Positions 12,445-53,207 of a stretch of DNA of 64,000 nucleotides are shown piece after piece. The translations under genes were made by a program, and so were the position numbers. This DNA comes from a bacterium (GTDB lineage Bacteria; Patescibacteriota; Minisyncoccia; 2-02-FULL-40-12; IGHO2-01-FULL-4-A), in contig JAUYLN010000020.1 in the NCBI GenBank assembly GCA_030698885.1, positions 7,346 through 71,345 of the forward strand, given 5' to 3'. The stretch's first letter is position 1. Every line of letters begins with the position of its first letter. The notes under the pieces are model-generated. The model was not told the DNA's origin, searched no databases, and saw nothing but the letters and a program-made list of their open reading frames with translations.

Positions 12445-12474
12445 TAAGTATTATCAGGCAGTAAGCTTTTTTCG

Positions 12475-12537
12475 GGTACGACATATTCGCCTGCTGGCGA
12501 ATTGTCTGGATCTCGCACCGTCGTGCTGCGATACACC
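12475..12537. repeat. Repeat GGTACGACAtATTCGCCTGCTGGCGAATTGTC...CGTCGTGCTGCG. A second copy at 41816-41878 lies downstream of fusA.
   Basis: The two copies lie downstream of rplB and fusA respectively. Confidence 0.6.
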
Positions 12538-12649
12538 CTAAAAAAGCCTACTGCCTGATGGAAGTTTAACAATTTACTTAAGAGGAAAGAGTGGTAATGG
12601 AATAAGGTAGATGTAATTGTAAATACAATTACATCCCGCTATTATTCGT

Positions 12650-16236: not shown

Positions 16237-16305
16237 GCGGTAGCCCTAAAGCCGTAAGCCGTAAAGCTTTAAAGCTCTATGGCCATATGGCTCTATGGCT
16301 TTATA
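16237..16305. repeat. Short tandem-repeat block (GCCGTAAAGC / AAGCTCTATGGC family) upstream of rplN
   Basis: agccctaaagccgtaagccgtaaagctttaaagctctatggccatatggctctatggc. Confidence 0.6.
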
Positions 16306-16307
16306 TC

Positions 16308-16673
16308 TTGATTCAGTTAAGAAGTATAGTAAATGTAGCTGATAATAGCGGAGCCAAAAGAGTTGGCGTTTTTAAGGTTTTAGGAGGTTCCAGAAAAAGA
16401 TATGCCAGAATAGGTGATATTGTGGTTGTGTCAGTAAAAGAAGCTGAGCCAGGAAAACAGGTTAAGAAAAAAGAAGTGGTTAAGGCCGTGGTTGTCAGAC
16501 AGAGAAGTAATTTCAGGAGAAAAGACGGAAGCTATATCAGATTTGATGAGAATGCGGTTGTTATATTGGACGGAATGAATCCCAAGGGTGGACGTGTTTT
16601 CGGTCCGATACCAAGAGAAATAAAAGAGAAAGGTTTTGATCAGATTGCAAGCTTAGCCCAGGAAATAATATAA
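16308..16673 (+). CDS. rplN: 50S ribosomal protein L14. A TTG start is inferred from the conserved M-I-Q N-terminus; the track ORF begins at 16287 inside the tandem repeat.
   Basis: ...[16 protein letters not shown]... L14 motif. Confidence 0.8.
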
Positions 16674-16763
16674 ATCTACCAATTACGAATTAGATACTAA
16701 TATACAAACAAGAAATAAAGAAATAGATTGGTATATTGGTGACCTGATTAGTAATTAGTAGGT
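16674..16763 (+). repeat. Intergenic nested-palindrome element, copy G (rplN->rplX)
   Basis: ATCTACCAATTACGAATTAGATACTAATATAC...GGTATATTGGTGACCTGATTAGTAATTAGTAGGT. Confidence 0.85.
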
Positions 16764-16766
16764 AAT

Positions 16767-17072
16767 ATGAATATAAGAAAAGGCGACAATGTAATAATGA
16801 GAGGCGGAAAAGACCGAAGAAAGACCGGAAAAGTTTTGGCTGTACTGACAAAAGAAAACAGGGTAGTTATAGAAGGGCTTAATACTGTAAAGAGACATCT
16901 TAAAGCAAGGAAGCAAGGCCAGAAGGGGCAGGTAATAAATAAAGAGAGAGCGGTACCTCTATCTACGGTGCAGCTTGTTTGCAGTAAATGCGGTAAGCGG
17001 ACAAGGGTGGGGATTCAAGTAAGCGGGGACAAGAAGATAAGAGTTTGTAAAAAATGCGGAGGAGAAATTTAG
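16767..17072 (+). CDS. rplX: 50S ribosomal protein L24, with a C-terminal Cys4 zinc ribbon (CSKC...CKKC)
   Basis: An N-terminal KOW domain typical of L24. The C-terminus carries CxxC-x14-CxxC in place of the usual tail. Confidence 0.85.
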   Translation: MNIRKGDNVIMRGGKDRRKTGKVLAVLTKENRVVIEGLNTVKRHLKARKQGQKGQVINKERAVPLSTVQLVCSKCGKRTRVGIQVSGDKKIRVCKKCGGEI

Positions 17073-17153
17073 GTTTACCAATTACGAATTAGATACTAAT
17101 ATACGAATCGGAGTTCATTGGTATATTGGTGACCTGATTAGTAATTAGTAGAT
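17073..17153 (+). repeat. Intergenic nested-palindrome element, copy H (rplX->rplE)
   Basis: GTTTACCAATTACGAATTAGATACTAATATACG...GTATATTGGTGACCTGATTAGTAATTAGTAGAT. Confidence 0.85.
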
Positions 17154-17157
17154 GACC

Positions 17158-17709
17158 ATGAAAGAACCAAGATTACTAACTAAATATAGAAAAGAAGTAG
17201 CCCCTGCAATGCAGGCTAAGTTTAGCTATAAAAGTGTTATGGCCATACCAAAGATAGAAAAAATAATCCTTAATGTAGGTACGGGCAAGGCTGCAGTCGC
17301 AAAAGAGCAAAAACTTATGGATAAGATTGAGCAAGATTTGACCAAGATAACCGGTCAGAAGCCCTCAGTTAGAAAATCCAAAAAATCTATTTCCGGATTC
17401 AAGGTTCGTGAAGGAATGGATGTCGGCAAGATGGTTACCTTGCGTGGCAGAAGAATGTATGATTTTATGGACAGGTTGATATCTGTAGCCCTTCCAAGGT
17501 CAAGGGATTTTCACGGCCTGGATGCAAAGTCTTTTGATAAAAGTGGTAATTTTAATATGGGCATAAAAGAACAAAATATTTTTCCGGAAGTTGCCTATGA
17601 ATCATTGAAGGATATATTTGGTTTGCAGATAACAGTTACAACTACAGCAAAGAATAAAGAAGAAGGCAGGGAGCTGTTGAGCCTAATAGGTTTTCCAATA
17701 AAAAACTAA
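17158..17709 (+). CDS. rplE: 50S ribosomal protein L5. An alternative start at 17152 is formed by the last bases of the repeat.
   Basis: L5 homology. Spacing after the element matches other copies if the start is 17158. Confidence 0.85.
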   Translation: MKEPRLLTKYRKEVAPAMQAKFSYKSVMAIPKIEKIILNVGTGKAAVAKEQKLMDKIEQDLTKITGQKPSVRKSKKSISGFKVREGMDVGKMVTLRGRRMYDFMDRLISVALPRSRDFHGLDAKSFDKSGNFNMGIKEQNIFPEVAYESLKDIFGLQITVTTTAKNKEEGRELLSLIGFPIKN

Positions 17710-17795
17710 TCTACTAATTACTAATAAAATCACTAATATACGAAATACGAATAAAAATCATTAGTATATTAGTATCTAATTCGTAATTGGTAGAT
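17710..17795 (+). repeat. Intergenic nested-palindrome element, copy I (rplE->rpsZ)
   Basis: TCTACTAATTACTAATAAAATCACTAATATACG...TTAGTATATTAGTATCTAATTCGTAATTGGTAGAT. Confidence 0.85.
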
Positions 17796-17798
17796 GAT

Positions 17799-17984
17799 AT
17801 GCCGAAAAAATCAACAATTGCAAGGTCAAACAAGAAGCCAAAGTTTTCCAGCCGAACTGTTCTCAGGTGTTTTATATGCGGGCGTAAGCATGGCTTTATG
17901 AGAAAGTTTGGATTGTGCAGGATACATTTTAGAGAATTGGCCGGTGAGGGGTTACTTCCCGGAGTAAAGAAGTCGTCATGGTAA
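17799..17984 (+). CDS. rpsZ: 30S ribosomal protein S14, type Z (zinc-binding, 61 aa)
   Basis: MPKKS...[25 protein letters not shown], a CxxC...C zinc motif. Start taken at the conserved MPKK. Confidence 0.85.
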
Positions 17985-18055
17985 TCTACCAATTACCAAT
18001 AAAATCACTAATATACTAAATTAGTAAATTCGTACCAAATTCGTAATTAGTAGAT
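17985..18055 (+). repeat. Intergenic nested-palindrome element, copy J (rpsZ->rpsH)
   Basis: TCTACCAATTACCAATAAAATCACTAATATAC...AAATTCGTAATTAGTAGAT. Confidence 0.85.
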
Positions 18056-18061
18056 GATAAT

Positions 18062-18457
18062 ATGTATACATTAGGTAATATGCTAATACAATTAAAAAAT
18101 GCTCAATCCGTAGGACACGGGAGAGTTTTGGTGCCATTCTCCAAAATGAATTTGGCAGTGATAACCCTGCTTAAAGACGGCGGATTCATAGATGGTTTTG
18201 AAAAGAAAAAAAGAAAATTGAAAAAAAGCGAAGTTAATTTTATTGATGTTAAGCTAAATAGTGATGACGGTAAAAAAATAAATAATATAAAACTGGTATC
18301 AAAGCCTTCAAGAAGAATGTATATAGGTAAAAAAGAAATAAGACCCGTTATGGAAGGACATGGTATGCTTGTGGTTACTACGCCAAGAGGAGTTATTTCT
18401 GGAGAGGAAGCAAAAAAACAGGGAGTAGGCGGAGAGGCATTGTTTGAGGTCTGGTAA
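18062..18457 (+). CDS. rpsH: 30S ribosomal protein S8
   Basis: S8 homology. Confidence 0.9.
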   Translation: MYTLGNMLIQLKNAQSVGHGRVLVPFSKMNLAVITLLKDGGFIDGFEKKKRKLKKSEVNFIDVKLNSDDGKKINNIKLVSKPSRRMYIGKKEIRPVMEGHGMLVVTTPRGVISGEEAKKQGVGGEALFEVW

Positions 18458-18527
18458 TCTACCAATTACCAATAAAATCACTAATATACTAATTAGTAAA
18501 TTCGTACCAAATTCGTAATTAGTAGAT
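18458..18527 (+). repeat. Intergenic nested-palindrome element, copy K (rpsH->rplF), near-identical to copy J
   Basis: TCTACCAATTACCAATAAAATCACTAATATACTAATTAGTAAATTCGTACCAAATTCGTAATTAGTAGAT. Confidence 0.85.
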
Positions 18528-18532
18528 GATAC

Positions 18533-19078
18533 ATGAGCAGAATAGGTAAACAACCAATAAATATATCACAGGGAACAGAAGTCTTTATCGACGGCAGTTT
18601 GGTTCGGATAAAAGGACCCAAGGGAGAGCTTAGCATCAGTATCCCGCGACAGGCTACTGTTGAGAAAGATGATTCTGCCATTACCGTCAAAGTTAAGAAT
18701 AAAGAAGATAAAAAGCAAAGAGCAATTTGGGGACTGGTGCGTGCTCTACTGGCCAATATGGTTAAGGGAGTTAATGAGGGATTTGAAAAACAGCTGGAGT
18801 TTAGCGGAGTTGGCTTCAGGGCCGGCTTAAAAGGTCAAGACCTTGAGCTAAGCTTGGGGTTTTCTCATCCGGTTTTAATTAAGGCTCCGGCCGGCGTTGT
18901 TTTTAAAGTAGAGAAAAATACGATTACGGTTAGCGGTATAGATAAGCAGTTGGTTGGCCACGCCGCTGCCTTTATAAGGTCTAAGAAGCCGGTGGAACCA
19001 TATAAAGGAAAGGGCATTAAATATATCGGCGAGTATGTAAAAAGAAAAGCCGGCAAGAAAGCTGTAGCATCAGCATAA
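18533..19078 (+). CDS. rplF: 50S ribosomal protein L6
   Basis: L6 homology. Confidence 0.9.
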   Translation: MSRIGKQPINISQGTEVFIDGSLVRIKGPKGELSISIPRQATVEKDDSAITVKVKNKEDKKQRAIWGLVRALLANMVKGVNEGFEKQLEFSGVGFRAGLKGQDLELSLGFSHPVLIKAPAGVVFKVEKNTITVSGIDKQLVGHAAAFIRSKKPVEPYKGKGIKYIGEYVKRKAGKKAVASA

Positions 19079-19093
19079 ACTAAAAATAATATT

Positions 19094-19441
19094 ATGAAAC
19101 CATCAAAGCAAAAAAATAGAGAAAGACGCCATACTCGAATCAGAGCTAAGATTAAGGGTACTTTAGAGATACCGAGGGTTTCAGTTTTTAGAAGCAATAA
19201 AAATATTTTTGTTCAGTTTATTGATGATAAGTCCGGTAAAACACTGGTAAGTAATATTGTTAAGTCTTCAGAAGGAAAGGGTACTAAAACAGAGAAAGCC
19301 GCTACAATAGGCGAAACATTAGCCCAAAAAGCAATTCAGGCCGGAATAAGCAAGGTCGTATTTGATAGGGGCGGGTTTAATTATCACGGCAGAGTGAGGG
19401 CACTGGCGGAGGGCTTAAGAAAGGGAGGGCTGAAATTCTAG
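19094..19441 (+). CDS. rplR: 50S ribosomal protein L18
   Basis: L18 homology. Confidence 0.9.
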   Translation: MKPSKQKNRERRHTRIRAKIKGTLEIPRVSVFRSNKNIFVQFIDDKSGKTLVSNIVKSSEGKGTKTEKAATIGETLAQKAIQAGISKVVFDRGGFNYHGRVRALAEGLRKGGLKF

Positions 19442-19475
19442 AACTAAGCCATAGGCAATAAGTTGTACGATTTTC

Positions 19476-19508
19476 TTACAGCTTACAGCTTACAGCTTAC
19501 AGCTTTAG
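19476..19508. repeat. Heptamer tandem repeat (CAGCTTA) x ~4.5 between rplR and rpsE
   Basis: cttacagcttacagcttacagcttacagcttta, seen directly. Confidence 0.7.
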
Positions 19509-20101
19509 TGGAAAACAACAATCAACAACTAAATAGTGGGAGGCCCAGTAGGGGTGGAGGCAGGGGTGGAGGTGATCGTAGGCAAGGCAAGCGTCCCCCA
19601 AGAGAAAAGTCGGAATTTGATTCCAAGGTTTTAGATTTGGCCCGCGTAACCAGGGTTACCAAGGGCGGCAAGAGGTTCAGCTTCAGGGCCACGGTTGTTA
19701 TTGGCGACAGAAAGGGCAGTGTCGGTCTTGGTGTTGCTCAGGGCAGTGATGTTGCTCAGTCAGTACAAAAAGCCACTAACCAGGCCAAAAGATTTTTAAT
19801 GTATGTTCCAAAATTGGGCAGTTCTATACCACACAAAGTTGAAAATAAATATAGTTCTGCTTCGGTTTTACTAAAACCGGCTGTTAAGGGCAACGGCCTA
19901 AAGGCCGGTGGTCCGGTCAGGGCGGTTATAAGTCTTGCCGGCATAGAGGATTTGACTGCCAAGTTGCTTAACAGAACCAGAAATAAAATAAATATAGCAA
20001 GGGCAACCATGGGAGCGCTGGCAAAACTAAAAGTTTCAGCCAAGGATAAGCCCCTGCCTGTCGTGCAGGTAGGTGAATCTGCTCAAGAAAATAAAGCTTA
20101 A
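19508..20101 (+). CDS. rpsE: 30S ribosomal protein S5 with an Arg/Gly-rich N-terminal extension. The start is uncertain: GTG at 19508 just after the heptamer repeat is preferred, with TTG at 19463 as the alternative.
   Basis: S5 core ...RVTKGGKRFSFRATVVIGD... preceded by GRPSRGGGRGGGDRRQGKRPP. Confidence 0.75.
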   Translation: MENNNQQLNSGRPSRGGGRGGGDRRQGKRPPREKSEFDSKVLDLARVTRVTKGGKRFSFRATVVIGDRKGSVGLGVAQGSDVAQSVQKATNQAKRFLMYVPKLGSSIPHKVENKYSSASVLLKPAVKGNGLKAGGPVRAVISLAGIEDLTAKLLNRTRNKINIARATMGALAKLKVSAKDKPLPVVQVGESAQENKA

Positions 20102-20105
20102 AATT

Positions 20106-20567
20106 ATGCAGTTACATCAATTAAAACCATCAGGAAGCAATAAAAAGCGCAAACGAGTGGGCCGAGGCGGAAGCCGCGGTACTTATTCTGGCCGTGGCCA
20201 GAAAGGACAGAAATCAAGAGCCAGCACTTCAATAAGGCCTGATTTTAGGGGTGGAAGCGTACCACTTTGGAAAATATTTGGTAAAAAAAGAGGCTCAAGC
20301 AAAAAGGTTGATATAAAACACAGAGCGTTTAGAATAAGGAATAAGAAGCCTATCGTTGTTAAGCTGTCCCAGCTGAATCACTTTTTTAAAGATGGCGATA
20401 CGGTTACATTAAAAAATGTTATAAAGGCCGGACTGGCCGATAAATCCGGGGCCGGTATTAAAATTTTAAGCAACGGCGAGATAACAAAGAAGTTAAATTT
20501 TGTCAGATTGCCTATGTCGGCATCAGCAAAAAATAAAGTTACAGCTGCCGGAGGCACCGTCAAATAG
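20106..20567 (+). CDS. rplO: 50S ribosomal protein L15. There is no L30 gene between S5 and L15.
   Basis: MQLHQLKPSGSNKKRKRVGRGGSRG..., the L15 N-terminus. Only 4 nt separate it from the rpsE stop. Confidence 0.85.
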   Translation: MQLHQLKPSGSNKKRKRVGRGGSRGTYSGRGQKGQKSRASTSIRPDFRGGSVPLWKIFGKKRGSSKKVDIKHRAFRIRNKKPIVVKLSQLNHFFKDGDTVTLKNVIKAGLADKSGAGIKILSNGEITKKLNFVRLPMSASAKNKVTAAGGTVK

Positions 20568-20649
20568 ATTTACCAATTACCAATAAAATCACTAATATAC
20601 AAATAAGAAATGGATTCGTATATTAGTACCAGATTAGTAATTAGTAGAT
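20568..20649 (+). repeat. Intergenic nested-palindrome element, copy L (rplO->secY)
   Basis: ATTTACCAATTACCAATAAAATCACTAATATAC...GTATATTAGTACCAGATTAGTAATTAGTAGAT. Confidence 0.85.
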
Positions 20650-20653
20650 AATC

Positions 20654-23607: not shown

Positions 23608-24570
23608 ATGAGCAAAAATATGAAAAAGCAAATATTTCATCTTTATTTCAATGATGATTTTGACGGTGTAAGTTCGGCGGCCTTGTTTTCTTATTTTGTG
23701 AACAAAAAATGGCCCGGAAAATATAAGTTCAAGTATAATTTGGCGGTTTTTAAGCCGGGATATCAGAAGGAGTGGATTGGTAAAAAACTACCGGAGCCTT
23801 CAGCTGTTTTTGATTTTCGTTATCATCCGGATGCGGGGTGGTGGTTTGATCATCATGAGTCGAGTTTTATTTACGAATCACAAAAGAAAAATTTTAAAAA
23901 TACTGCCCAAAAAGCTTGGGACAAAAACCGTAAATCATGTTGTAGCTTAATTTTAAATCATCTGTCGGGCTATTTTAATTTTGAGTTTCCGGGTTATTTA
24001 AAAGAGCTTGCCAAAGAAGCAGATATTATTGATTCTGCCGGTTATAAATCTGCTAAGGAAGCCCTGGAGCCCAAAGAATCGGCTATAAAATTGAGCAACA
24101 TACTTCCGCTGGGCTTCAGCACTAAAGATGCAAAGGCGTGGATTGAAAGCTTAGCCTCTGGTCCGATGTCTGAAGTGATGAAATTAGATTTAACGAAGAA
24201 GAGAATGTTAAAAGCTGAAAGAATCATAAGTAAGGCCATTGAAGAAGCAAAAAATTTTTCAAAAGTCATCGGCGACACAGTCTTTTTGCCCGGGGGCAGG
24301 ATATTCAGCAGATTTGCCGTTTATTTAGTATATCCAAAAGCATATTATGCAGTGATAGTAAGCGATGTGGGGGAGTATTACCACATCGGGGCAGGCAAGA
24401 ATCCTTGGCTTGAAGTCAGGGACCAGAAAGATATTTCTGAAGTAATGAAAAAATTCGGCGGAGGAGGCCATGTCAATGTCGGTGCGACAGAAGTTAAGAC
24501 AAAGAAAGAAGCTTTACAAATTGCAGAAAAAGTGGTAGAAATATTGAACAGTAAAGCCGTAAAGCTGTAA
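23608..24570 (+). CDS. DHH/DHHA1-family phosphoesterase (NrnA-like)
   Basis: DGVSSAAL..., FDHHES (the DHH motif) and GGGGH (the DHHA1 GGGH motif). Confidence 0.55.
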   Translation: MSKNMKKQIFHLYFNDDFDGVSSAALFSYFVNKKWPGKYKFKYNLAVFKPGYQKEWIGKKLPEPSAVFDFRYHPDAGWWFDHHESSFIYESQKKNFKNTAQKAWDKNRKSCCSLILNHLSGYFNFEFPGYLKELAKEADIIDSAGYKSAKEALEPKESAIKLSNILPLGFSTKDAKAWIESLASGPMSEVMKLDLTKKRMLKAERIISKAIEEAKNFSKVIGDTVFLPGGRIFSRFAVYLVYPKAYYAVIVSDVGEYYHIGAGKNPWLEVRDQKDISEVMKKFGGGGHVNVGATEVKTKKEALQIAEKVVEILNSKAVKL

Positions 24571-24622
24571 GCCGTAAAGCCGTAAAGCTCTATGGCCGTA
24601 AAGCTCTATGGTCTCATAGCTT
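24551..24622. repeat. Short tandem-repeat block (GCCGTAAAGC / AAGCTCTATGGC family) upstream of the sugar-transferase gene
   Basis: gtaaagccgtaaagctgtaagccgtaaagccgtaaagctctatggccgtaaagctctatggtctcatagc. Confidence 0.6.
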
Positions 24623-26006
24623 GAGGCGTTCTGATTTAATCTTCAACGTAATATTGGTCCCGGTTGATTTTGCTATGCTGGCTCTTGCCGGCATAACTAC
24701 CTATCTTCTGCGCACAGAGATACTGACGGCTTTCAGGCCGGTTCTTTTTGAATTTAACCTGCCCTTTGAAAAGTATATTTTCCTGGCGCTTGGCGTGGCG
24801 GGTTTTTTTGTGGTTGTTTATGCTATATCCGGGCTGTATAACATCGGAGGCCCCAGGAATATTCTGGAAGAGTTTTTCAAGGTAGTTATTGCCTCGTCTG
24901 CGAGCATAATGACTATAATCGTTTATATATTCTTAAGGCAGGAACTTTTTGATTCCAGATTTCTAGTTCTTGGCGCATGGTTTTTTTCTATCATTTTTGT
25001 TTCACTGGGAAGGCTTATCGTGAGGCAGGTTCAGAAGAGTCTCGTTTCTAAACTTGATTACGGAATTCATAAAGTGCTTGTCATTGGCAATGACGATATA
25101 TCTTTCAAAATAATTAACGGCATGAATGACAACCACTCTCTGGGCTATAGGGTGGTTAAACAGCTTGTGAATCCGGAAGTGTCAGAAGTTAAGCTGGCTA
25201 TAGGCAATCCGGGCATAGACGAAGTGATTCTGGCTAATCCTAACTATCCTCAAGATAAAGTAGTTGAGATTGTAGATTTTTGCCATGAGAACCATCTTGT
25301 TTTCAAATTTGTTCCTAATATTTATCAGACTTTAACCGCAAATGCTTCAGCCGAAGCATTTGCCGGGGTGCCCTTAATTGAGCTTAGGAGGACTGCTCTA
25401 GACGGCTGGGGAAGCGTAGTTAAAAGACTGGTAGATGTTTTTGCTTCTGCGCTGGGCTTGATAATTCTATCGCCTTTGTTTTTGATTATAGCTTTTGCCA
25501 TTAAGTGGGAAACAGCCGGTCCGGTTTTTGTAAGACTTGAAAGAGTCAGCAGGAACAAAAGGTTTCAGTTGCTAAAGTTCAGGTCAATGATAAATAATGC
25601 GGATAAGTATAAGGAGATGCTCAAAGAAATGAATGAGCGTTCAGACGGCCCGCTTTTCAAAATGCGTTTTGATCCGCGCGTGACAAGAATTGGAAGATTC
25701 ATAAGGCGCACCAGAATAGATGAACTGCCTCAACTTTGGAATGTTTTGAGGGGGGAGATATCATTGGTTGGGCCAAGACCTCATGAGCCGTCAGAAATAG
25801 ATAAATACCAGAAGCATCACCGGAAAGTTCTGGCCTTAAAAGCCGGGGCTACGGGACTGGCCCAGATATCGGGCAGTTCTGATTTACCATTTGAAAAAGA
25901 AGTTGCCTTGGACACTCTTTATATTGAAAAATGGTCTCTATCTCAAGATATTAAAATTATCATTAGAACTGCCATCAAAATGTTCCGTGACCACTCGGCG
26001 GTTTGA
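24621..26006 (+). CDS. Polyprenyl-phosphate sugar phosphotransferase (WbaP/WcaJ 'bacterial sugar transferase' family). The start is uncertain.
   Basis: The C-terminal domain ...ISLVGPRPHEP...DTLYIEKWSLSQDIKII... with N-terminal TM helices. Confidence 0.75.
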   Translation: MRRSDLIFNVILVPVDFAMLALAGITTYLLRTEILTAFRPVLFEFNLPFEKYIFLALGVAGFFVVVYAISGLYNIGGPRNILEEFFKVVIASSASIMTIIVYIFLRQELFDSRFLVLGAWFFSIIFVSLGRLIVRQVQKSLVSKLDYGIHKVLVIGNDDISFKIINGMNDNHSLGYRVVKQLVNPEVSEVKLAIGNPGIDEVILANPNYPQDKVVEIVDFCHENHLVFKFVPNIYQTLTANASAEAFAGVPLIELRRTALDGWGSVVKRLVDVFASALGLIILSPLFLIIAFAIKWETAGPVFVRLERVSRNKRFQLLKFRSMINNADKYKEMLKEMNERSDGPLFKMRFDPRVTRIGRFIRRTRIDELPQLWNVLRGEISLVGPRPHEPSEIDKYQKHHRKVLALKAGATGLAQISGSSDLPFEKEVALDTLYIEKWSLSQDIKIIIRTAIKMFRDHSAV

Positions 26007-31166: not shown

Positions 31167-32783
31167 ATGGACATATCATCTTCAAAAATTTCATCTGGAA
31201 TTTTTCGCGGCAGCATAACGCTGGCCGTTTTTTCTTTGGTGTCGCGCCTGACCGGTCTTCTGCGGGACCGTATTCTGGCCGGGCGTTTTGGCGCCGGGGA
31301 AACTCTGGATATTTATTATGCCGCATTCAAAATTCCTGATTTCATATTCCACCTGGTGATTATCGGTGCTGTTTCCGCGGCCTTTATTCCTACATTTATA
31401 AATTATTATGAACGGGACAAAAATGAAGGCTGGAGGCTGGCGAGTAATTTTTTAAATACCGCTCTTTTCTTTGTGATAACCGCTTCGCTTATTTTAATAA
31501 TTTTTATCCCGGATTTAATGCCTCTGGTAGCGCCGGGATTTGGACCTTTGCAAACAGCTTATGCCGTAGACCTGACGAGGATTATGTTTTTGAGTCCGGT
31601 TATTTTTGCCATTTCAACTGTTTTGGGTTCCATTCTTCAGTCTTTAAGAAGATTTCTGGCTTTTGCCATTGCCCCTTCTTTCTATAATTTTGGAATTATT
31701 TTCGGAGCTTTATATCTTGAGCCCAGTCTTGGCCTCTCCGGTCTTGGCTGGGGAGTTATCATCGGAGCATTGCTCCATCTTCTGATACAGCTTCCGGCGG
31801 TATTTAGGGCGGGATTCAGGTGGTTTGCTGTTTTTGATTTTGCCGACTCCGGTTTAAGAAAGGTTTTTAAGTTAATGATGCCAAGAACTTTAGGCCTTGC
31901 TGTAACTCATATAAATCTGATAATTATTACGGCTATAGCATCAACCATAACAGTTGGCAGCATATCTATTTTTAATTTCGCCAATAATCTCCAGTTCCTG
32001 CCCATTTCAATGATAGGCGTTTCAATATCTATTGCTATTTTTCCGACGCTGTCCTCTTTATCGGGTCGGGATAATGAAGCTTTTATCAATGATTACTTGA
32101 GCGCTATGAAGCAAATAATATTTTTTGGCGTGCCTGTATCTTTTGCCATGTTTATTTTTAGAGAACCGATAGTGGCTCTTTTGCTTGGGGTTGGCAGGTT
32201 CGGCCCCGAAGATATAGGGCTGACTGCTGCCGCGGTAGGTATTTTCGCATTCAGTGCGTTAGCCATATCTCTCGTATCTCTGATTAATAGAGCATTTTAT
32301 GCTTTTCATAATACGGTTATCCCCTTAGTTGTCGGTGCTATTTCTGTTTCCCTTAATATAGTCTTATCATTTTTGCTTGTGGGCTGGTTTAAGATTGAAG
32401 AATTTTCTTTGTTCTGGCAAAAAATTCTTGGAGTTAGCGATGGTCCTGCATTTTCCATAATAGGCTTGGCGCTTGCCTGGAGCCTTTCTCATGTTCTGTA
32501 TTCTGTTTTAATCCACCTAAAATTTATAAAATTTGCCGGTATTAAAAAATCCGGTATCTGGCAATATATGAGCAAAACGATAGGCGCCTCCCTATTGTCT
32601 TGTGGTATATTAATTTTTGCCCTCCCGTATATTCCAAAAATATCTGTTTTATCCGGTTTTGTTTCTCAGTTTCTTTCGCTTTCATTGGATGTATTGATTT
32701 TCGGAATTATGGCCTTTGTTTTTTGCAGGATATTCGGAATTAAGGAAGCAGTTATTCCCTCGCGATTTCTTAGGAGGGTTTAG
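31167..32783 (+). CDS. murJ: Lipid II flippase MurJ (MviN)
   Basis: 14-TM protein with an N-terminal ...LTGLLRDRILAGRFGAGETLDIYYAAFKIPDF... MurJ signature. Confidence 0.75.
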   Translation: MDISSSKISSGIFRGSITLAVFSLVSRLTGLLRDRILAGRFGAGETLDIYYAAFKIPDFIFHLVIIGAVSAAFIPTFINYYERDKNEGWRLASNFLNTALFFVITASLILIIFIPDLMPLVAPGFGPLQTAYAVDLTRIMFLSPVIFAISTVLGSILQSLRRFLAFAIAPSFYNFGIIFGALYLEPSLGLSGLGWGVIIGALLHLLIQLPAVFRAGFRWFAVFDFADSGLRKVFKLMMPRTLGLAVTHINLIIITAIASTITVGSISIFNFANNLQFLPISMIGVSISIAIFPTLSSLSGRDNEAFINDYLSAMKQIIFFGVPVSFAMFIFREPIVALLLGVGRFGPEDIGLTAAAVGIFAFSALAISLVSLINRAFYAFHNTVIPLVVGAISVSLNIVLSFLLVGWFKIEEFSLFWQKILGVSDGPAFSIIGLALAWSLSHVLYSVLIHLKFIKFAGIKKSGIWQYMSKTIGASLLSCGILIFALPYIPKISVLSGFVSQFLSLSLDVLIFGIMAFVFCRIFGIKEAVIPSRFLRRV

Positions 32784-32912
32784 ACAGGGCCTTTTTTTGT
32801 TTTACGGCAGATGTTATGGTTATCGGATTATTGGTTCAAATAAGTCAATAATGATTAACGCGTTTGGCCCTCCATGAGCGGAGGAGCTCTACGGCGAAAG
32901 CATATAAGCCAC

Positions 32913-34706
32913 ATGGAAAATATAAGAAATTTCGTAATTATAGCTCATATAGACCACGGCAAATCCACTTTAGCGGACAGGTTTTTAGAGTTGACCGGAA
33001 CTGTGGAGAAAAGGCAGATGCAAGAACAATATCTGGACCAGATGGAGCTTGAGCGCGAGCGGGGAATAACCATCAAGCTACAGCCTGTACGAATGAGCTA
33101 CTCACTACACACTACCAACTACCAACTAAATCTGATTGATACTCCAGGTCACGTTGATTTTTCATACGAAGTCTCGCGCTCCTTAGCCGCAGTTGAAGGA
33201 GCAGTTTTACTCGTCGATGCCACTAAAGGTATTCAGGCCCAGACTCTTGCTAATTTTAATTTTGCCCGAGAACAGGGGCTGGTTATAATTCCGGTCATTA
33301 ATAAGGTTGATTTGCCCAATGCCAGAGTTTCCGAAGTTGAGGAAGAAATAAAAAACCTTTTAAATTCAGAAGCTAAAATTTTTAAAATATCGGCAAAGAC
33401 AGGCGAGGGTGTGGCGGATATTTTAGAAGAAGTGATAAGACTGGTTCCGCCTCCATCCGGTAATAAATATCAGGAAGATACCGGCGACAGATTCAGGGCT
33501 GTAATTTTTGATTCTGATTTTGACAGCTACAAGGGAGTTATCGCTTTTGTGAGGGTTTTTGGAGGCAGACTGAAAGCCGGCCAGCAAATATCTTTTTCGG
33601 CGGCAAAAGCCAGAAGTTCGGTAGTTGAGGTGGGTTACTTTATGCCTCTCTTAACCAAGGCAGATTCCATAGAAGCAGGTCAGATAGGATATATAGCCAC
33701 GGGCCTTAAAGATCCGGCTACGGTCAGGGTGGGCGATACTGTGGGCATATGGAATGAACCGGTTGAGGCTTTGCCGGGATACAAAGAGCCCCGGCCGATG
33801 GTATTTGCAAGTTTTTATCCGGAAGCCGGAGATGACTATGACTCGCTCAAAGATGCATTGTCCAAAGTTAAATTAACGGATGCTTCGTTAAGTTATGAAC
33901 CTGAATCTTCTCCAGGCCTTGGCAGGGGATTTCGGCTTGGGTTTTTAGGTATGCTTCATATTGAAATAGTGAGCGAAAGGCTTCATCGCGAGCATAAGCT
34001 GGGGCTTATCATAAGTACGCCATCGGTGGAATATCATGTTGTACAAAAAAACGGAAAGGTGGCAGTAATAAGGTCCGCTTCTGCCATGCCTGACCCGAGT
34101 TATATAGAAAAAATAGAAGAACCGATGGTTTTGCTTGAAATTTTAAGTCCGGCTTCTTATCTTGGTTCTCTGATGAATCTGTTGGCGGAATTAAGAAGCC
34201 AATATTTGGATACGGATTATATCGGCAAAGAGATAGTGGTGCTTAAATATAAAGTTCCGTTGGCGGAAATTGTAACTGATTTTTATGACAAACTAAAAAG
34301 CATCAGTTCGGGCTATGCCTCAATGAGCTACGAACCCTCTGAATATCAGCATTCAGATTTGGTTCGGTTGGATATTTTAGTTGCCGGCGACCCGGTTGAG
34401 CCGTTTGCCAAAATTGTGCCTAGAGAGAAGGCGCATAACGAAGGCAAGAACATTGTGGAGCGGCTTAAAAAGGTCATTCCGCCTCAGCTGTTCGTGGTTG
34501 CCTTGCAGGCGGCCATAGGGGGCAAGATTATTGCCCGTGAATCAATAAGCGCGAAGCGCAAGGACGTTACCGGGTATTTATACGGTGGAGATATTACCAG
34601 AAAGAAGAAGTTATTGGAAAAGCAAAAACGGGGCAAAAAGAAGATGAAAGAAATCGGCAAAGTTAATATTCCACAAAAAGTGTTTTTGGAGATGTTGAAG
34701 AGATAG
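32913..34706 (+). CDS. lepA: Elongation factor 4 (LepA)
   Basis: MENIRNFVIIAHIDHGKSTLADR... and a LepA C-terminal domain. Start set at the conserved Met (the track ORF starts at 32874). Confidence 0.9.
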   Translation: MENIRNFVIIAHIDHGKSTLADRFLELTGTVEKRQMQEQYLDQMELERERGITIKLQPVRMSYSLHTTNYQLNLIDTPGHVDFSYEVSRSLAAVEGAVLLVDATKGIQAQTLANFNFAREQGLVIIPVINKVDLPNARVSEVEEEIKNLLNSEAKIFKISAKTGEGVADILEEVIRLVPPPSGNKYQEDTGDRFRAVIFDSDFDSYKGVIAFVRVFGGRLKAGQQISFSAAKARSSVVEVGYFMPLLTKADSIEAGQIGYIATGLKDPATVRVGDTVGIWNEPVEALPGYKEPRPMVFASFYPEAGDDYDSLKDALSKVKLTDASLSYEPESSPGLGRGFRLGFLGMLHIEIVSERLHREHKLGLIISTPSVEYHVVQKNGKVAVIRSASAMPDPSYIEKIEEPMVLLEILSPASYLGSLMNLLAELRSQYLDTDYIGKEIVVLKYKVPLAEIVTDFYDKLKSISSGYASMSYEPSEYQHSDLVRLDILVAGDPVEPFAKIVPREKAHNEGKNIVERLKKVIPPQLFVVALQAAIGGKIIARESISAKRKDVTGYLYGGDITRKKKLLEKQKRGKKKMKEIGKVNIPQKVFLEMLKR

Positions 34707-34893
34707 TACTCGGCCAGCCATAGTTTTTAATTTTCGTTTCACTCGCGGGTAAATAATATTGTAATTTTCTCATTTTCCTAGATAAAAAACTGGTTCCCGT
34801 TCCGACCAGTTTTTTATTACGTAAAATCTCAAAAATTACAATTTATTTACGGCCACTCGCTCAAATAAATTAAAAACTTTGGCTGGCCTCGTT
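34707..34893. mobile_element. MITE-like element: ~60-bp terminal inverted repeats (34710-34768 / 34833-34891) flanking a terminator-like core hairpin (34784-34816)
   Basis: TIR-R is the reverse complement of TIR-L with few mismatches. A solo TIR copy lies at 41921-41980. Confidence 0.6.
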
Positions 34894-35251
34894 CTAGTTT
34901 TACGGCTATATAATTGCCTCAGTTATTTTTTTGCCGATTTCCGAAGGTGGTGAGGTGGGGGGATAGGATAGCCCCCGCCGTTTTTAGCGGGAGCCACTAT
35001 ACAAACGGCTCAACGATAATTATCGTTGAGCCGTTTGTGGTTAACCGAGGGCCGCTCTCGTTAATTTTTACGTATAGTCTACAGCTTACTGTTTATAGCT
35101 GTTATACTATTAATAAAAGGCGGGCCTGCCTACCGAAGTTTTATACGAAGGCGGGGAGAATTAGAAGTAGAACAAAAGAAACTATCGTCAAGACAGCGAT
35201 AATTATTCCGAACCAGCGCACGAATTTTTTATTGCCGATAACCATAGATGA

Positions 35252-35332
35252 TCTACTAATTACTAATTTCATACTAATATACTAATCTATTTCTTATTCG
35301 TATATTAGTGATTTTATTAGTAATTGGTAGAT
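35252..35332 (+). repeat. Intergenic nested-palindrome element, copy M (upstream of the ftsB-like gene)
   Basis: TCTACTAATTACTAATTTCATACTAATATAC...GTATATTAGTGATTTTATTAGTAATTGGTAGAT. Confidence 0.8.
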
Positions 35333-35357
35333 AAACGATAAGTTTCATTATATCCTT

Positions 35358-35720
35358 ATGAACAAACTTTTTCAATCACCGCTCCTGACTGTGCCCCTGA
35401 TTTTAATCATGGGATTTTTGCTTTTGCAGATAATAAAAATAAATCCCGAAAAATCCGACCTGGACAAAAAAGTAGCTAATCTTGAGGGACAGATAAGTAA
35501 ACAGGAGCAGTTGCTGCAAGAACTTGAGAAAGAAGCTGACTATTACCAAAGTGATAGCTATAAAGAAAGACAGGCCCGTATCAGATTGAACTATAAAAAG
35601 CCCGGCGAAAAAGTGATACTAGTTTATGACAGTCCGGTTGATGTGGAGAAGCAGGCTTCAAAATCCGAAGAGGCATTGCCATTTTGGAGAAATTGGCTAG
35701 AATATTTATTCGGAGAATAA
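35358..35720 (+). CDS. Septum-formation initiator FtsB/DivIC-like protein
   Basis: N-terminal TM segment, a coiled coil, and ...KERQARIRLNYKKPGEKVI..., which resembles the FtsB/DivIC C-terminal motif. Confidence 0.5.
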   Translation: MNKLFQSPLLTVPLILIMGFLLLQIIKINPEKSDLDKKVANLEGQISKQEQLLQELEKEADYYQSDSYKERQARIRLNYKKPGEKVILVYDSPVDVEKQASKSEEALPFWRNWLEYLFGE

Positions 35721-38546: not shown

Positions 38547-38625
38547 GCCCAAAATAGATCATTTGACCCGCTTCCCGCCTTCTGCTATTATGTAGACAGG
38601 CTTAGGGCCTTTATTTTATTCTTAG

Positions 38626-38706
38626 TCTACCAATTACGAATTTTGTACTAATATACTAATAGAATTTAAATTCGTATATTAGTGATTTAATTAGTAATTA
38701 GTAGAT
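38626..38706 (+). repeat. Intergenic nested-palindrome element, copy N (upstream of rpsL)
   Basis: TCTACCAATTACGAATTTTGTACTAATATAC...GTATATTAGTGATTTAATTAGTAATTAGTAGAT. Confidence 0.85.
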
Positions 38707-38709
38707 AAT

Positions 38710-39120
38710 ATGCCGACTTTTAACCAATTAATGAAACACCCAAGAAGGGTAGCAAAAGCGAAGGATACTTCGCCTGCTTTGTCATTTAGCTTCAACACCA
38801 TACACAACAGACCGACATACAGTCCGGCTCCGTTTAAAAGAGGAGTCGTAACTCAGGTTAGAACTGTAACTCCGAAAAAGCCTAACTCCGCCTTGAGAAA
38901 AGTTGCCCGTATAAGGCTGACAAACGGTATGGAAGTAACAGCGTATATTCCGGGCGAAGGCCACAATATTCAGGAACATGCTGTAGTGATGATAAGAGGC
39001 GGAAGAGTAAAGGATTTGCCGGGTGTCAGGTATCACATTGTCCGAGGCAGATTAGATGCTGCCGGAGTTGAGAAGCGAAGGCAACAGCGTTCTAAGTACG
39101 GCGCCAAGCGCCCCAAATAA
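38710..39120 (+). CDS. rpsL: 30S ribosomal protein S12
   Basis: S12 homology (...[11 protein letters not shown]...). Confidence 0.95.
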
Positions 39121-39201
39121 TCTACCAATTACTAATCGGGTACTAATGTACGAATAAAATCAGGATTAGTATATTAGTGATTTAATTAGTAATTAGTAGA
39201 T
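39121..39201 (+). repeat. Intergenic nested-palindrome element, copy O (rpsL->rpsG)
   Basis: TCTACCAATTACTAATCGGGTACTAATGTACG...GATTAGTATATTAGTGATTTAATTAGTAATTAGTAGAT. Confidence 0.85.
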
Positions 39202-39206
39202 AATAT

Positions 39207-41787: not shown

Positions 41788-41815
41788 TCGCTCGTGCATA
41801 CTATCAACTTTTAAA

Positions 41816-41878
41816 GGTACGACACATCCGCCTGCTGGCGGATTGTCTTTTGTTCGCGCCGTCGCGCTCCACAGAACC
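41816..41878. repeat. Second copy of the GGTACGACA...CGCCTGCTGGCG... repeat (first copy at 12475-12537)
   Basis: Near-identical to the copy downstream of rplB. Confidence 0.6.
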
Positions 41879-41920
41879 TTTAAAAATTAATAGTATGCCA
41901 CTCGCTTGGGGTGGAGGGAT

Positions 41921-41980
41921 AAAATTACAATTTATTTACAACCGCTCGCTCAAATAAATTAAAAACTATGGCTGGCCTCG
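41921..41980. repeat. Solo copy of the MITE terminal repeat (AAAATTACAATTTATTTACAACCGCTCGCTCAAATAAATTAAAAACTATGGCTGGCCTCG)
   Basis: ~90% identical to TIR-R at 34833-34891. Confidence 0.6.
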
Positions 41981-42018
41981 CTTGGGCTGGGTAAGGCCTT
42001 ATACTGATTTTGCTATTT

Positions 42019-42165: not shown

Positions 42166-42882
42166 ATGAGACTATCCATAATAATTCCCGCTTACAATGA
42201 ATCAAAAAGAATTGAGAAGACGCTTCTTAGCGTCCATGAGTATTTATCCAAGCAAGATTATGAGTACGAGATATTAGTAGTGAATGATGGCTCAAAAGAT
42301 AATACAGCTGAGGTAGTTAAAAATCTTGAATCGCAGGTCAGGGGTTTAAAACTTATAGATAATAAAGAAAATCACGGCAAGGGCTGGGCGGTAAAACAGG
42401 GGATGCTTCAAGCAAAAGGCGAGGCGAGATTATTTATGGATGCTGATAACTCTACAACCGTTGACCAGGTTGCCGGTTTTTTGCCGTTTTTCGGGGAAGG
42501 ATTTGATATTGTTATCGGTTCCCGCCGGATTAAGGGCTCTGATATTGCGGTGCATCAGCCGTGGTTCAGGGATTTTCTCGGCGGAGCATTCAGACTTATA
42601 GTCCACATTTTGGTTCCGCTGGGAGTTACTGACTCTCAGGCGGGATTTAAAGTATTTTCGGCCAAAGCTACGGAGGCGATATTTCCAAGGCAGACAATAT
42701 TTCGCTGGGCGTTTGATGTTGAAATTTTGGCAATTGCCCGTAAAATGAAGTTTAAGATAAAAGAAGCACCGATAAAGTGGGTTAATGACACTGAAAGTAA
42801 GGTTAAACTGTCGGGCATGATAAAAATGTTGTTTGAAGTTATTCAGGTAAGATTGAATTTGTGGGGCGGGAAATATAAGTAA
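42166..42882 (+). CDS. Glycosyltransferase family 2 (polyprenyl-phosphate glycosyltransferase-like)
   Basis: MRLSIIIPAYNESKRI...VNDGSKD... Confidence 0.75.
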   Translation: MRLSIIIPAYNESKRIEKTLLSVHEYLSKQDYEYEILVVNDGSKDNTAEVVKNLESQVRGLKLIDNKENHGKGWAVKQGMLQAKGEARLFMDADNSTTVDQVAGFLPFFGEGFDIVIGSRRIKGSDIAVHQPWFRDFLGGAFRLIVHILVPLGVTDSQAGFKVFSAKATEAIFPRQTIFRWAFDVEILAIARKMKFKIKEAPIKWVNDTESKVKLSGMIKMLFEVIQVRLNLWGGKYK

Positions 42883-42964
42883 TCTACTAATTACTAATAA
42901 AATCACTAATATACGAATAAGATTAAAATTTAGTATATTCGTATCAGATTAGTAATTGGTAGAT
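42883..42964 (+). repeat. Intergenic nested-palindrome element, copy P (GT2->galT-like)
   Basis: TCTACTAATTACTAATAAAATCACTAATATACG...GTATATTCGTATCAGATTAGTAATTGGTAGAT. Confidence 0.85.
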
Positions 42965-42969
42965 GATTC

Positions 42970-43971
42970 ATGAATGAATTCCGACAAGATATAGTTTCCG
43001 GGGAGTGGGTGCTTTTTGCGCCTGATCGTGCTAAGCGTGGCATCAGGGTTTTGCAATGCGAAGAATTGAACAGAGATAAAGAAAAATGCCCCTTTGAAGA
43101 TTTAGAAGGTAACGGCAATACGGTTCTTAAAACATACGACTGGGACGGTTGGGACGGTTGGTTTGCAAAGGTTATAAATAATAAATATCCCGCTGTTGCG
43201 AGAAACTGTATTGACGAAGAGGCGGAAATTAAAAAAATTGGCCCCTTCAGAAGCACCGAGGCCCGGGGTGCGCACGAGGTAATAGTTTACGGCAATCACG
43301 ACAAACTGATGATGGAGTTTGATGAGAAAGAAATGGCCCAAGTATTCAGGATATATAAAGACCGTTATGAAGTTATAACCAAAGAATGTGCCAGTGAATT
43401 TATTCTGATATTTAATAATCACGGTTCAAAAGCCGGAGGCTCCCTATATCATCCCCATTCACAGATAATATCAACCCCCGTTATGCCACCGGATGTTGAA
43501 GCGAGCGTTAAGGGTTCGGAAAGATATTATATGGAATATAAGGAGAAGGTTTATGATGCCATGATTAGGTACGAGATGCAGGAGGGTAAGAGAATAATAG
43601 CGGAAAATGATGATTTTGTGGCATTCTGTCCTTTTGCTTCCAAGACTCCTTACGAGATGAGGGTTTTTCCAAAAGAGGATGGCGCGCACTTCAATGATAT
43701 ATCTGAAAATAATATCATTAATCTGGGCGATATAGTCAGTAAGATACTAAAAAAAATGGATAAAGTTTTAAAGAGGCCGGACTATAATTTTTTCATTCAC
43801 ACTTCGCCCTTGCATCGCCGCTGGGAAAAGCCCGAATATTTTTATACATGGCATATAGAGATATTGCCCAAGATATCTTTAGTCGGCGGTTTTGAAATAG
43901 GTAGTGGCATTTATGTGAATGTCATTGATCCGGATGATGCCGCAAGGCAGATGCGAGACGCTGAAATATAA
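42970..43971 (+). CDS. Galactose-1-phosphate uridylyltransferase-like (GalT/HIT superfamily)
   Basis: An N-terminal Cys/His cluster and ...GSLYHPHSQI..., an HxHxQ nucleotidyl-transfer motif. Confidence 0.6.
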   Translation: MNEFRQDIVSGEWVLFAPDRAKRGIRVLQCEELNRDKEKCPFEDLEGNGNTVLKTYDWDGWDGWFAKVINNKYPAVARNCIDEEAEIKKIGPFRSTEARGAHEVIVYGNHDKLMMEFDEKEMAQVFRIYKDRYEVITKECASEFILIFNNHGSKAGGSLYHPHSQIISTPVMPPDVEASVKGSERYYMEYKEKVYDAMIRYEMQEGKRIIAENDDFVAFCPFASKTPYEMRVFPKEDGAHFNDISENNIINLGDIVSKILKKMDKVLKRPDYNFFIHTSPLHRRWEKPEYFYTWHIEILPKISLVGGFEIGSGIYVNVIDPDDAARQMRDAEI

Positions 43972-44033
43972 TCTACTAATTACTCGTATGTTCCTTATTA
44001 GTATATTGGTGATTTTATTGGTAATTAGTAGAT
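43972..44033 (+). repeat. Intergenic nested-palindrome element, copy Q (galT-like->tpiA), short form
   Basis: TCTACTAATTACTCGTATG...TTAGTATATTGGTGATTTTATTGGTAATTAGTAGAT. Confidence 0.8.
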
Positions 44034-44037
44034 TTAC

Positions 44038-44799
44038 ATGAAAAAACTAATCATCGCAAACTGGAAAGATAACCCTGCAACCGCCAAAGAGGCGGAAGAG
44101 CTTTTTTATTTTTACTATGATGCCTATTCGGAATTAAGAGATAAGATAGACCTAGTCGTTTGCCCGCCAGCAGTCTATATTCAGGAGTTGGCTGCAATAT
44201 CAAAGAGCATGCCTCTGGGCGCCCAGGATGTGTCCTGGGAGAGTTCGGTGGGTCCTCATACCGGAGAAATTACTGCTGATGTTTTGAAAAATTTAGGCGT
44301 GGAGTACGTTTTGGTCGGACATTCAGAGCGCAGATACGGCATAGGCGAGAGCGATGAGGTTATAAGCAAAAAACTAAAGGCAGCCCTTTCTGCCGGATTA
44401 ACCCCGGTGCTTATCGTAGGAGAAAGGAATAATCAGGATGACCGTAAAAAAATAATTGAAGAGCAGTTAGCGATTGACCTGGATGCCCTGGATCCGGAAA
44501 GCGTATCAAAGATTATTCTGGCTTATGAGCCGGTGTGGGCTATCAGTACAAGCCAAGATGGTCATCCGGACACACCCCAAAACGCATTTGATGCACTTGG
44601 CGAAATTAAGAATTTCGTCTTTGAAACTTACCGGGTCAGGCCGGATGCGTATAGGTCCGTTTATGGCGGAAGCATTACCGAAGGCAATGTAGCTGCTTTT
44701 CTGGGTCATGATGAAATAAATGGCGCCCTGATAGGAGGAGCAAGCCTTCGCAAAGAAGAGTTCTCCAGTATTTTAAAGATAGTCAGCGAGCTTAAATGA
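44038..44799 (+). CDS. tpiA: Triosephosphate isomerase
   Basis: ...VLVGHSERR... and the TIM barrel motifs. Confidence 0.9.
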   Translation: MKKLIIANWKDNPATAKEAEELFYFYYDAYSELRDKIDLVVCPPAVYIQELAAISKSMPLGAQDVSWESSVGPHTGEITADVLKNLGVEYVLVGHSERRYGIGESDEVISKKLKAALSAGLTPVLIVGERNNQDDRKKIIEEQLAIDLDALDPESVSKIILAYEPVWAISTSQDGHPDTPQNAFDALGEIKNFVFETYRVRPDAYRSVYGGSITEGNVAAFLGHDEINGALIGGASLRKEEFSSILKIVSELK

Positions 44800-46553: not shown

Positions 46554-46557
46554 ATAA

Positions 46558-46639
46558 TCTACCAATTACGAATTAAATCACTAATATACGAATGAGAAGT
46601 CTTGATTAGTATATTGGTATAAAATTAGTAATTAGTAGG
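46558..46639 (+). repeat. Intergenic nested-palindrome element, copy R (rnhA->DoxX)
   Basis: TCTACCAATTACGAATTAAATCACTAATATACG...GATTAGTATATTGGTATAAAATTAGTAATTAGTAGG. Confidence 0.85.
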
Positions 46640-52851: not shown

Positions 52852-53034
52852 ATGAAACTCTTCATGAAGATTCCATAAACTTGAGATTAAATAAAGCTTA
52901 GCATATAATAACATAATTAATTTTGGCCCGCAAAACAGTGATAGGACAGCATACTTGCCAAAAATAACAAATTGTGATATTATATATACAGTAAAAAGGC
53001 TTAATGCCTTTTTGCGTTAAAAGCGCTATTATCA

Positions 53035-53197: not shown

Positions 53198-53207
53198 AAG
53201 GCCTTTT

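Follow-up and report, generated by a model that had tools for sequence, protein, structure and literature searches.

A non-coding palindromic repeat of apparently nested build directly 3' of lepA in an uncultured Patescibacteria genome

The lepA gene of an uncultured member of the Patescibacteria (CPR) is directly followed at its 3' end by a non-coding palindromic element of about 193 nt. The element looks nested, with one palindromic module lying inside the loop of another, and a left-truncated half copy is found after fusA. We read it, with moderate confidence, as a nested palindromic repeat that is non-coding, specific to its lineage and of the MITE/REPIN/ERIC kind; it occupies the terminator position of lepA and would have been copied at least once. 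Between the convergent genes, it likely serves today to terminate transcription and to protect 3' ends. It was filed among the small palindromic intergenic repeats, an ordinary class, as a member of no named family and of unproven mobility. All positions refer to the window, i.e. the whole 64-kb stretch of DNA that was analysed (Table 1).

Table 1. Positions of genes, repeat modules and direct repeats in the window.
Feature	Position	Strand	Basis or remark
rplB	11605-12444		Pfam
D14 partner after rplB	12453..12559	+	same core as the fusA-side copy, different outer stem
murJ	31167-32783		Pfam
lepA (elongation factor 4)	32874..34706	+	Pfam LepA_C, GTP_EFTU; 100% match to an NCBI MAG EF4
Whole imperfect palindrome	34704..34896	.	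73 base pairs in minimum-energy fold
Outer stem, left half, GGCCAGCCATAGTTTTTAATTT	34712..34733	.	21/22 complementary to 34867-34888
CACTCGC, left copy of 7-nt direct repeat	34740..34746	+	unpaired in hairpin; flanks inner palindrome
Inner palindromic module, stems GTAAATAATATTGTAATTTT / AAAATTACAATTTATTTAC and apex	34749..34850	.	inverted-repeat search, fold
Apex hairpin AAAAAACTGGT-loop-ACCAGTTTTTT	34785..34816	.	shape of a bidirectional intrinsic terminator; sequence, fold
CACTCGC, right copy of 7-nt direct repeat	34854..34860	+	flanks inner palindrome
Outer stem, right half	34867..34888	.	pairs with 34712-34733
Small hydrophobic ORF, 33-34 aa	35141..35245	-	conserved in L008, L010, L011; convergent with lepA
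divIC	35358-35720		Pfam
D14, fusA-side copy	41796..41898	+	three-way-junction hairpin directly upstream of fusA half copy
CTCGCTTGGGGTGG, left copy of 14-nt direct repeat	41901..41914	+	flanks fusA half copy
Half copy after fusA	41915..41980	+	inner right stem, CGCTCGC, outer right stem, CTCG; without left arm and apex
CTCGCTTGGGCTGG, right copy of 14-nt direct repeat (13/14)	41977..41990	+	flanks fusA half copy
AT-rich palindromic family	10263-20653, 35244-35339, 38618-39206, 42872-44041, 46554-46629		

The TAG stop codon of lepA (34704-34706) forms the first three bases of the palindrome. An inverted-repeat search returned outer arms at 34704-34733/34867-34896 (30 nt, 87%) and inner arms at 34749-34794/34805-34850 (46 nt, 72%). 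The 201-nt lepA stretch folded as RNA into one long hairpin of -66.5 kcal/mol, compared with -29.7 +/- 4.1 kcal/mol for dinucleotide shuffles (z -8.9; 0 of 200 shuffles equally stable). The 22-mer GGCCAGCCAWAGTTTTTAATTT has exactly three occurrences in the window (34712 on the + strand, 34867 and 41956 on the - strand), none being expected from shuffles. The first-pass annotation had described terminal inverted repeats of about 60 bp that were near-perfect reverse complements. An inverted repeat was recovered, but it is not near-perfect, 34710-34768 and 34833-34891 being complementary at only 47 of 63 positions (75%). The arms are composite and consist of an outer block (21/22 complementary), an inner block (19/20) and a fully non-complementary island of about 15 nt between them. 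The longest ORF touching the element measures 43 aa and runs mostly antisense to lepA, so that its description as small and non-coding holds.

Within the non-complementary island, both arms carry CACTCGC on the + strand. Placed opposite each other in hairpin register, the two copies share 0/7 complementary bases; they are a true direct repeat located 2-3 nt outside the inner stems. In the whole 64 kb, CACTCGC has only three occurrences. All are on the + strand and confined to the lepA and fusA loci, the third one adjoining the fusA half copy. In-silico deletion of 34747-34853 together with one 7-mer left a hairpin of 63 nt that pairs almost perfectly (z -8.1, with -20 kcal/mol as a DNA fold), and the excised inner unit folded alone as a hairpin (z -6.2). 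The 7-mers of the island and the clean hairpin obtained after deletion lead to the nested reading, i.e. a palindromic module in the loop of another. Accordingly worded as a history, the outer module would be a 63-nt hairpin with a 21-bp stem, and the inner palindromic module of 107 nt, tipped by an A6-stem-T6 terminator-like hairpin, would sit in its loop. The inner module would have inserted into this loop and duplicated loop sequence, giving the CACTCGC bracket. The nested composite, or part of it, would then have been copied at least once, giving the left-truncated copy at fusA.

The 7-nt direct repeat could alternatively come from a local rearrangement within the palindrome. A flip of the hairpin loop was considered as the source of the same-strand 7-mer; only the 7-mer matches between the loops, while the rest of the loop differs, and nested insertion therefore fits better. 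REP-like, self-folding arms were ruled out, since single arms folded no better than shuffles (z -1.9, -0.8 and +2.0, the value of -0.8 belonging to the fusA arm).

A single copy of the arm had been noted after fusA, and this was confirmed by 93% identity between 41921-41980 and 34832-34891, which are 7 kb apart. The copy retains the junction of inner stem, 7-mer and outer stem of the lepA element, with CGCTCGC as a variant of the 7-mer at the homologous place, and is truncated on the left. Both loci have a common right end, TGGCTGGC followed by CTCG. Because the junction between inner and outer stem is kept, the fusA copy would be derived from, or co-ancestral with, an already nested composite. 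The 14-mer flanking it has one other match in the window when up to two mismatches are allowed, against 0.4 expected from shuffles.

A second repeat after fusA, with a partner after rplB, was likewise recovered (12468-12545 versus 41809-41886, 73% identical over 78 nt). Its conserved core GGTACGACAYATYCGCCTGCTGGCGRATTGTCT...GCRCCGTCGYGC folds as a three-way junction. Between the two copies of this repeat, here called D14, compensatory double changes were found in 7 of 27 predicted pairs; the outermost stems are unrelated in sequence, yet paired in both. The fusA-side hairpin is flanked by CGCTCG and CACTCG. No Rfam match was obtained for D14, which is a candidate structured RNA or a candidate hairpin-loop insert after rplB and fusA.

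The window thus holds one full and one half copy of the lepA element; a profile search of the 64 kb with all three arms revealed no fourth, degenerate copy. Beyond the window, the exact outer-stem pattern (21/22-mer) gave one match in genome contigs, where a Falkowbacteria MAG has it within the gene for an ABC transporter, four matches in metagenome contigs, all unrelated, apparently coding and dissimilar past the 22-mer, and none in viral contigs. The genome and metagenome matches were rejected as relatives and regarded as chance matches. Nothing was returned by blastn of the 201-nt unit against phage and plasmid records, or by a protein-level search, for which the open frame of 47 aa running through the element served as query to catch mis-called ORFs over further copies. 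The literature searched contained nothing relevant on palindromic repeats or MITEs in Patescibacteria/CPR. The suggestion that such elements accumulate at the 3' ends of translation genes could not be upheld: it concerns three genes only and is not separable from chance. By an uncounted impression from ORF order and a few scans, translation genes make up about half of the genes of the window, so that a chance association is possible.

The next-best matches of the LepA protein, in Yanofskybacteria and Paceibacterota MAGs, are at most 76% identical. The order murJ-lepA-[gap]-small ORF-divIC is kept in the relatives L008 (Yanofskybacteria CG10) and L010/L011. The small ORF has the protein pattern M.IGNKKfIRWFGIiVAVLTIxSfV..LPAF, and in the three genomes it is divergent from divIC and convergent with lepA (5256-5357 in L008, 3663-3767 in L010); it is missing from the called-gene tables of L008 and L010/L011. 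From its conservation in three relatives it follows that lepA and a real small gene are convergent, with a spacer of 434 nt between them, the far side of the lepA intergenic region being marked by this ORF. The predicted ORF 34914-35285 had been suspected of being spurious, and very probably is. It has no Pfam match, and relatives have only open stretches of 54-62 aa there; lack of a family and a frame closed in relatives, where the small ORF on the opposite strand is conserved instead, support this assignment. An ORF called opposite a conserved 34-aa gene is an example of a gene caller misled. A replication origin or terminus was rejected, GC skew being positive throughout and without a switch.

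The site after lepA was compared among these relatives. L008 has a long hairpin of about 190 nt just 3' of lepA (z -4.8) and L010 a Y-shaped hairpin of about 127 nt (z -6.6) in the same place. In L014, a plain terminator begins in the TAG stop codon (TAGAAACCGGCG..CGCCGGTTTCTATTTTTT) and resembles the outermost pairs of the element (TAGTAC..GTTCTA, then GTTTTAC). No hairpin follows lepA in L012 and L013. Local alignment of the window element with the lepA hairpins of relatives gave z values below 1.2, the same as shuffles, and homology to the hairpins of L008 and L010 was rejected on these scores. Flanking blocks (34944-35040) and the small ORF still align in relatives, with covarying stems. 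Unrelated hairpins at a site with alignable neighbours argue for hotspot turnover and not for a conserved RNA; on this comparison of sequences, the site appears to behave as a place of repeated hairpin building or replacement.

Two further observations were made in this spacer. The block 34944-35040 corresponds to 3395-3480 of L010 (76% LepA identity) and is built as ATAGGATAGCCC-hairpin-GCCACTAT-AAACGGCTCA-hairpin-TGAGCCGTTT, the hairpin interiors covarying between the window and L010. A perfect TATAAT precedes it (34909-34914) and a terminator-like site follows (35046-35060); no Rfam match was obtained. A small RNA of about 150 nt may be encoded here on the + strand. In L010 (3141-3220), L011 (3146-3260) and also L008 (4813-4850), one to four tandem 39-nt units (CGTAAATCCTGA..GGGCTGAAGCGNTAG) stand after the lepA stop. 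Each unit ends in a copy of the last 11 nt of lepA, stop codon included, and the copy number differs between two contigs encoding identical LepA. The end of the gene seems to have been duplicated repeatedly.

A palindrome made in place without mobility is a rather unlikely alternative. The lepA terminator would have been enlarged locally, through inverted duplications and template switching (quasi-palindrome correction), and the fusA piece would be a one-off ectopic duplication or gene conversion. Such an origin suits a palindrome that is unbroken from stop codon to apex, outermost pairs and a T-rich run like those of the plain L014 terminator, and a total of only 1.5 known copies; a tandem duplication of 76 nt, present in 1.2 copies, is another possible reading of the 14-nt repeat at fusA. 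Simple inverted duplication, however, leaves unexplained why a 7-nt direct repeat lies symmetrically in both arms. The three arms are 93-95% identical in their stems whereas the bubble is wholly different, which also speaks against it, and unrelated long hairpins at the same site in relatives find no explanation.

Target-site duplications had been proposed as a check and were looked for around the whole unit. CTCG abuts GCCAGCC...GGCTGGC on both sides of the lepA element (34709, 34888) and on the right side at fusA. At lepA this pair amounts to a 2-nt TC/TC mismatch, beyond which the palindrome continues outward (TAGTAC/GTTCTA). As the CTCG flanks reduce to a mismatch inside a continuing palindrome, they are weak evidence for a target-site duplication, and the flanking repeat of the whole lepA unit was not significant. 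Counted on the + strand, the two 200-nt windows richest in CTCG in the 64 kb are the lepA element and the fusA spacer (4 each versus about 0.2 expected), figures that come from n = 2 loci and belong to motif evidence in which several coincidences were picked out post hoc. The strand-specific CTCG motif is treated as an unexplained feature of two loci and not as proof of a mechanism.

These data bear on a classical MITE, i.e. a deletion derivative of an IS moved by a DDE transposase acting in trans on GCCAGCCAWAG... terminal inverted repeats, with CTCG as target-site duplication. A non-coding unit of about 180 bp with terminal inverted repeats is what such an element would look like, and the placement of CTCG against GCCAGCC...GGCTGGC, two-sided at lepA and right-sided at fusA, would agree with it, as would the CTCG-richness of the two loci. 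Nevertheless this origin is unlikely. Besides the mismatch nature of the CTCG pair, the same 4-mer at two loci would need target specificity, or else belongs to the element, and the flanking repeat at fusA is 14 nt and not 4 nt long. A cognate enzyme was sought by Pfam, and the 30 window ORFs scanned contained no transposase, RAYT or integrase. The terminal 22-mer outside the two loci was absent from the window and gave chance matches only in public collections.

Bacterial MITEs carry terminal inverted repeats, are shorter than 200 bp, form long RNA stem-loops and are possible terminators (Delihas 2011, PMC3184786). The lepA element has their size (193 nt, <400 bp), their terminal inverted repeats and their lack of a transposase gene; a partner IS with the same ends was found neither among the scanned window ORFs nor among the occurrences of the terminal 22-mer. 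It is similar to Correia elements (CREE, Neisseria) and ERIC (Enterobacteriaceae) in its length of 100-200 bp, non-coding nature, terminal inverted repeats and long RNA stem-loop, and in lying between genes, inside transcription units or at their ends, with the ability to carry terminators or promoters. It differs from them in having no sequence similarity, no TA duplication and only 1.5 copies in the window. With SPRITEs it has in common a repeat core that resembles an intrinsic terminator, but SPRITEs are a multi-copy family in one well-sampled species, whereas the lepA apex is present in a single copy and absent from the fusA half copy.

REPINs or REP-BIMEs are doublets of REPs that form hairpins and are mobilised by RAYT HUH transposases (PMC3116915, PMC3733652). 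In REPINs, inverted doublets fold as hairpins and singlets are remnants (Bertels & Rainey 2011, PMC3116915), and REP-type repeats are often placed within 20 bp of stop codons, which they may even supply (Di Nocera et al. 2013, PMC3733652). Several traits are alike in the lepA element, namely inverted related units with a spacer that fold as one hairpin, a single unit elsewhere (fusA) as a likely remnant, a position right after a stop codon between convergent or co-directional genes, and mosaic joining with other hairpin modules. REPs, on the other hand, are palindromes of 20-40 nt, whereas the lepA arms, with about 60 nt, are longer and show no folding of their own. The arm ends at lepA and fusA lack a GTAG or CGTC tag, the recurrent unpaired motif being CTCG/CACTCGC, and 1.5 copies in the window compare with tens to hundreds, with no RAYT among the scanned window ORFs.

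Insertion into existing hairpins is familiar from IS1397 and ISKpn1, which insert in REP loops, and from IS621, which inserts in REPs. The lepA element resembles these cases by its apparently nested module in what would be a pre-existing hairpin loop and by an apparent short duplication of loop sequence. The inserted units there are full IS with transposase genes, whereas the proposed insert at lepA is a gene-less palindrome of 107 nt.

The direct repeats measure 7 nt (inner module), 14 nt (fusA) and 6 nt (around D14), and lengths so unequal are a poor fit to one transposase of fixed stagger. An IS91-type target (GTTC/CTTG by the fixed right end) was rejected; both tetramers occur, but their boundary is shifted by 1 nt from one locus to the other and a duplication of 14 nt is at odds with such a target, so that the match was treated as coincidence. 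We also regard it as decidedly doubtful that the lepA, fusA and possibly D14 modules represent undescribed hairpin-targeting mobile DNA of Patescibacteria. Insertion would then be strand-specific, at C(N)CTCG in hairpin loops or just past stop codons, and would leave direct repeats of 6, 7 and 14 nt, all with CTCG on the gene strand, as well as left-truncated copies with a fixed right end. Variable repeats and a fixed right end would be a better fit to a single-strand (HUH-type) or copy-and-prime mechanism than to a DDE transposase. If true, such elements might be a general means by which reduced CPR genomes build or renew terminators and intercistronic structures.

A functional structured RNA, as a 3'-UTR element of lepA or an sRNA derived from the 3' end, is improbable. 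Its symmetric CACUCGC internal loop would bind a dimeric protein or a processing enzyme, a proposal modelled on the very stable fold, on the same 7-mer being on the transcribed strand in both arms with the CGCUCGC variant in the fusA copy, and on 3 of 4 differences between right arm and fusA lying in the loop outside the motif. In the Rfam scan of the window, only two tRNAs reached the gathering threshold and no family was assigned to the lepA element. The matches obtained there were generic long-hairpin miRNA models far below threshold, the best being a plant miRNA-precursor model with 34 bits against a gathering score of 195. 6S RNA or another known RNA had no Rfam support and was rejected. 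Relatives provide neither sequence nor covariation support for this RNA; the fusA copy has no partner arm, its single arm folding at the shuffle level given above, and an efficient terminator at the apex would halt transcription before the right arm, so that the long RNA hairpin would seldom form.

A fold-back chimera from metagenome assembly is highly improbable: palindromes are a known assembly hazard and an independent Logan contig (SRR13727534) ends within the element at 34750, yet that same assembly reproduces the junction of lepA and left arm, the arms are imperfect and differ by the full 15-nt island whereas fold-back artefacts are exact reverse complements, a half copy that has diverged is present at fusA as well, and Logan contigs break in ordinary genes too (L007 ends inside tuf and dnaE). 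For the same reason, i.e. breaks of same-sample contigs in ordinary genes, the stop at 34750 was not taken as a sign of extra copies.

The nested repeat reading is accompanied by a likely function at the lepA terminator position. A terminator-like core hairpin had been pointed out in the element, and aaaaaactggt..accagtttttt was found at 34785-34816. Its stem CTGGT(T)..(G)ACCAG contains three G-C pairs, with A6 before and T6 after, and lies 79 nt past the stop codon. A simple consensus terminator scan did not call this apex hairpin, we think because its T-run pairs with the A-run. Transcripts of lepA would end at the apex hairpin. Transcripts reading through, or arriving from the convergent gene, would fold back over about 73 bp, and the resulting hairpin would block 3' exonucleases and insulate the two convergent units.

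Other families of intergenic repeats were observed in the window. In the ribosomal-protein and neighbouring operons, intercistronic spacers are taken up by AT-rich palindromes of one family, about 85-95 nt long (TCTACYRATTAC ... GTAATYRGTAGA). In 13 of 16 cases the left end begins 0-4 nt from a stop codon (one contains the stop), the ORF concerned being at least 80 aa long, and 12 of 15 right ends finish 3-8 nt ahead of the ATG of the next ORF. The layout of stop, hairpin and start is systematic, with CTAC/GTAG termini and no obvious Shine-Dalgarno sequence. The family could serve in translational coupling or processing, or as terminator/promoter units, and is potentially more interesting than the lepA element. 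Palindromic arrays with a period of 8 nt (AAAGCTCT / ATGGCCGT / AAAGCCGT) at 15712-15794, 16234-16319 and 24547-24632 occupy short gene spacers (e.g. 16235-16287, stop to start) and form a second, unrelated family of intercistronic hairpins.

A promoter-like block CCCAGTTGTCAAAAATNAAAACTRATGMTATNSTATCAC is repeated at 12980-13023, 15665-15708 and 52950-52993 and is found inside the ribosomal-protein cluster. This suggests internal promoters, and the ribosomal-protein 'operon' is possibly several transcription units. A 163-nt palindrome with 56-nt arms (75% complementary) at 53035-53197 overlaps the beginning of the gene for the T2SSE ATPase (53121-54425). Five ORFs at 54425-58745, in the type IV pilus region beside T2SSE and T2SSF, have an identical upstream and N-terminal block AAGTATTAAGGGATAAGTAGTAAGTATTAAGC-ATG-AATACAAAAA; these are probably paralogous pilin-like genes with a common leader and promoter.

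Taken alone, the lepA element adds one more lineage-specific case to the palindromic intergenic repeats, and its importance is modest. It is of more use as a marker: several families of long hairpins occupy the intergenic spacers of this small genome, and in at least one family there are signs of nested insertion and copying. Should the full genome contain multiple copies, the element would be a compact system for following the creation, extension and replacement of terminator hairpins in reduced genomes, and for finding the moving enzyme, if any.
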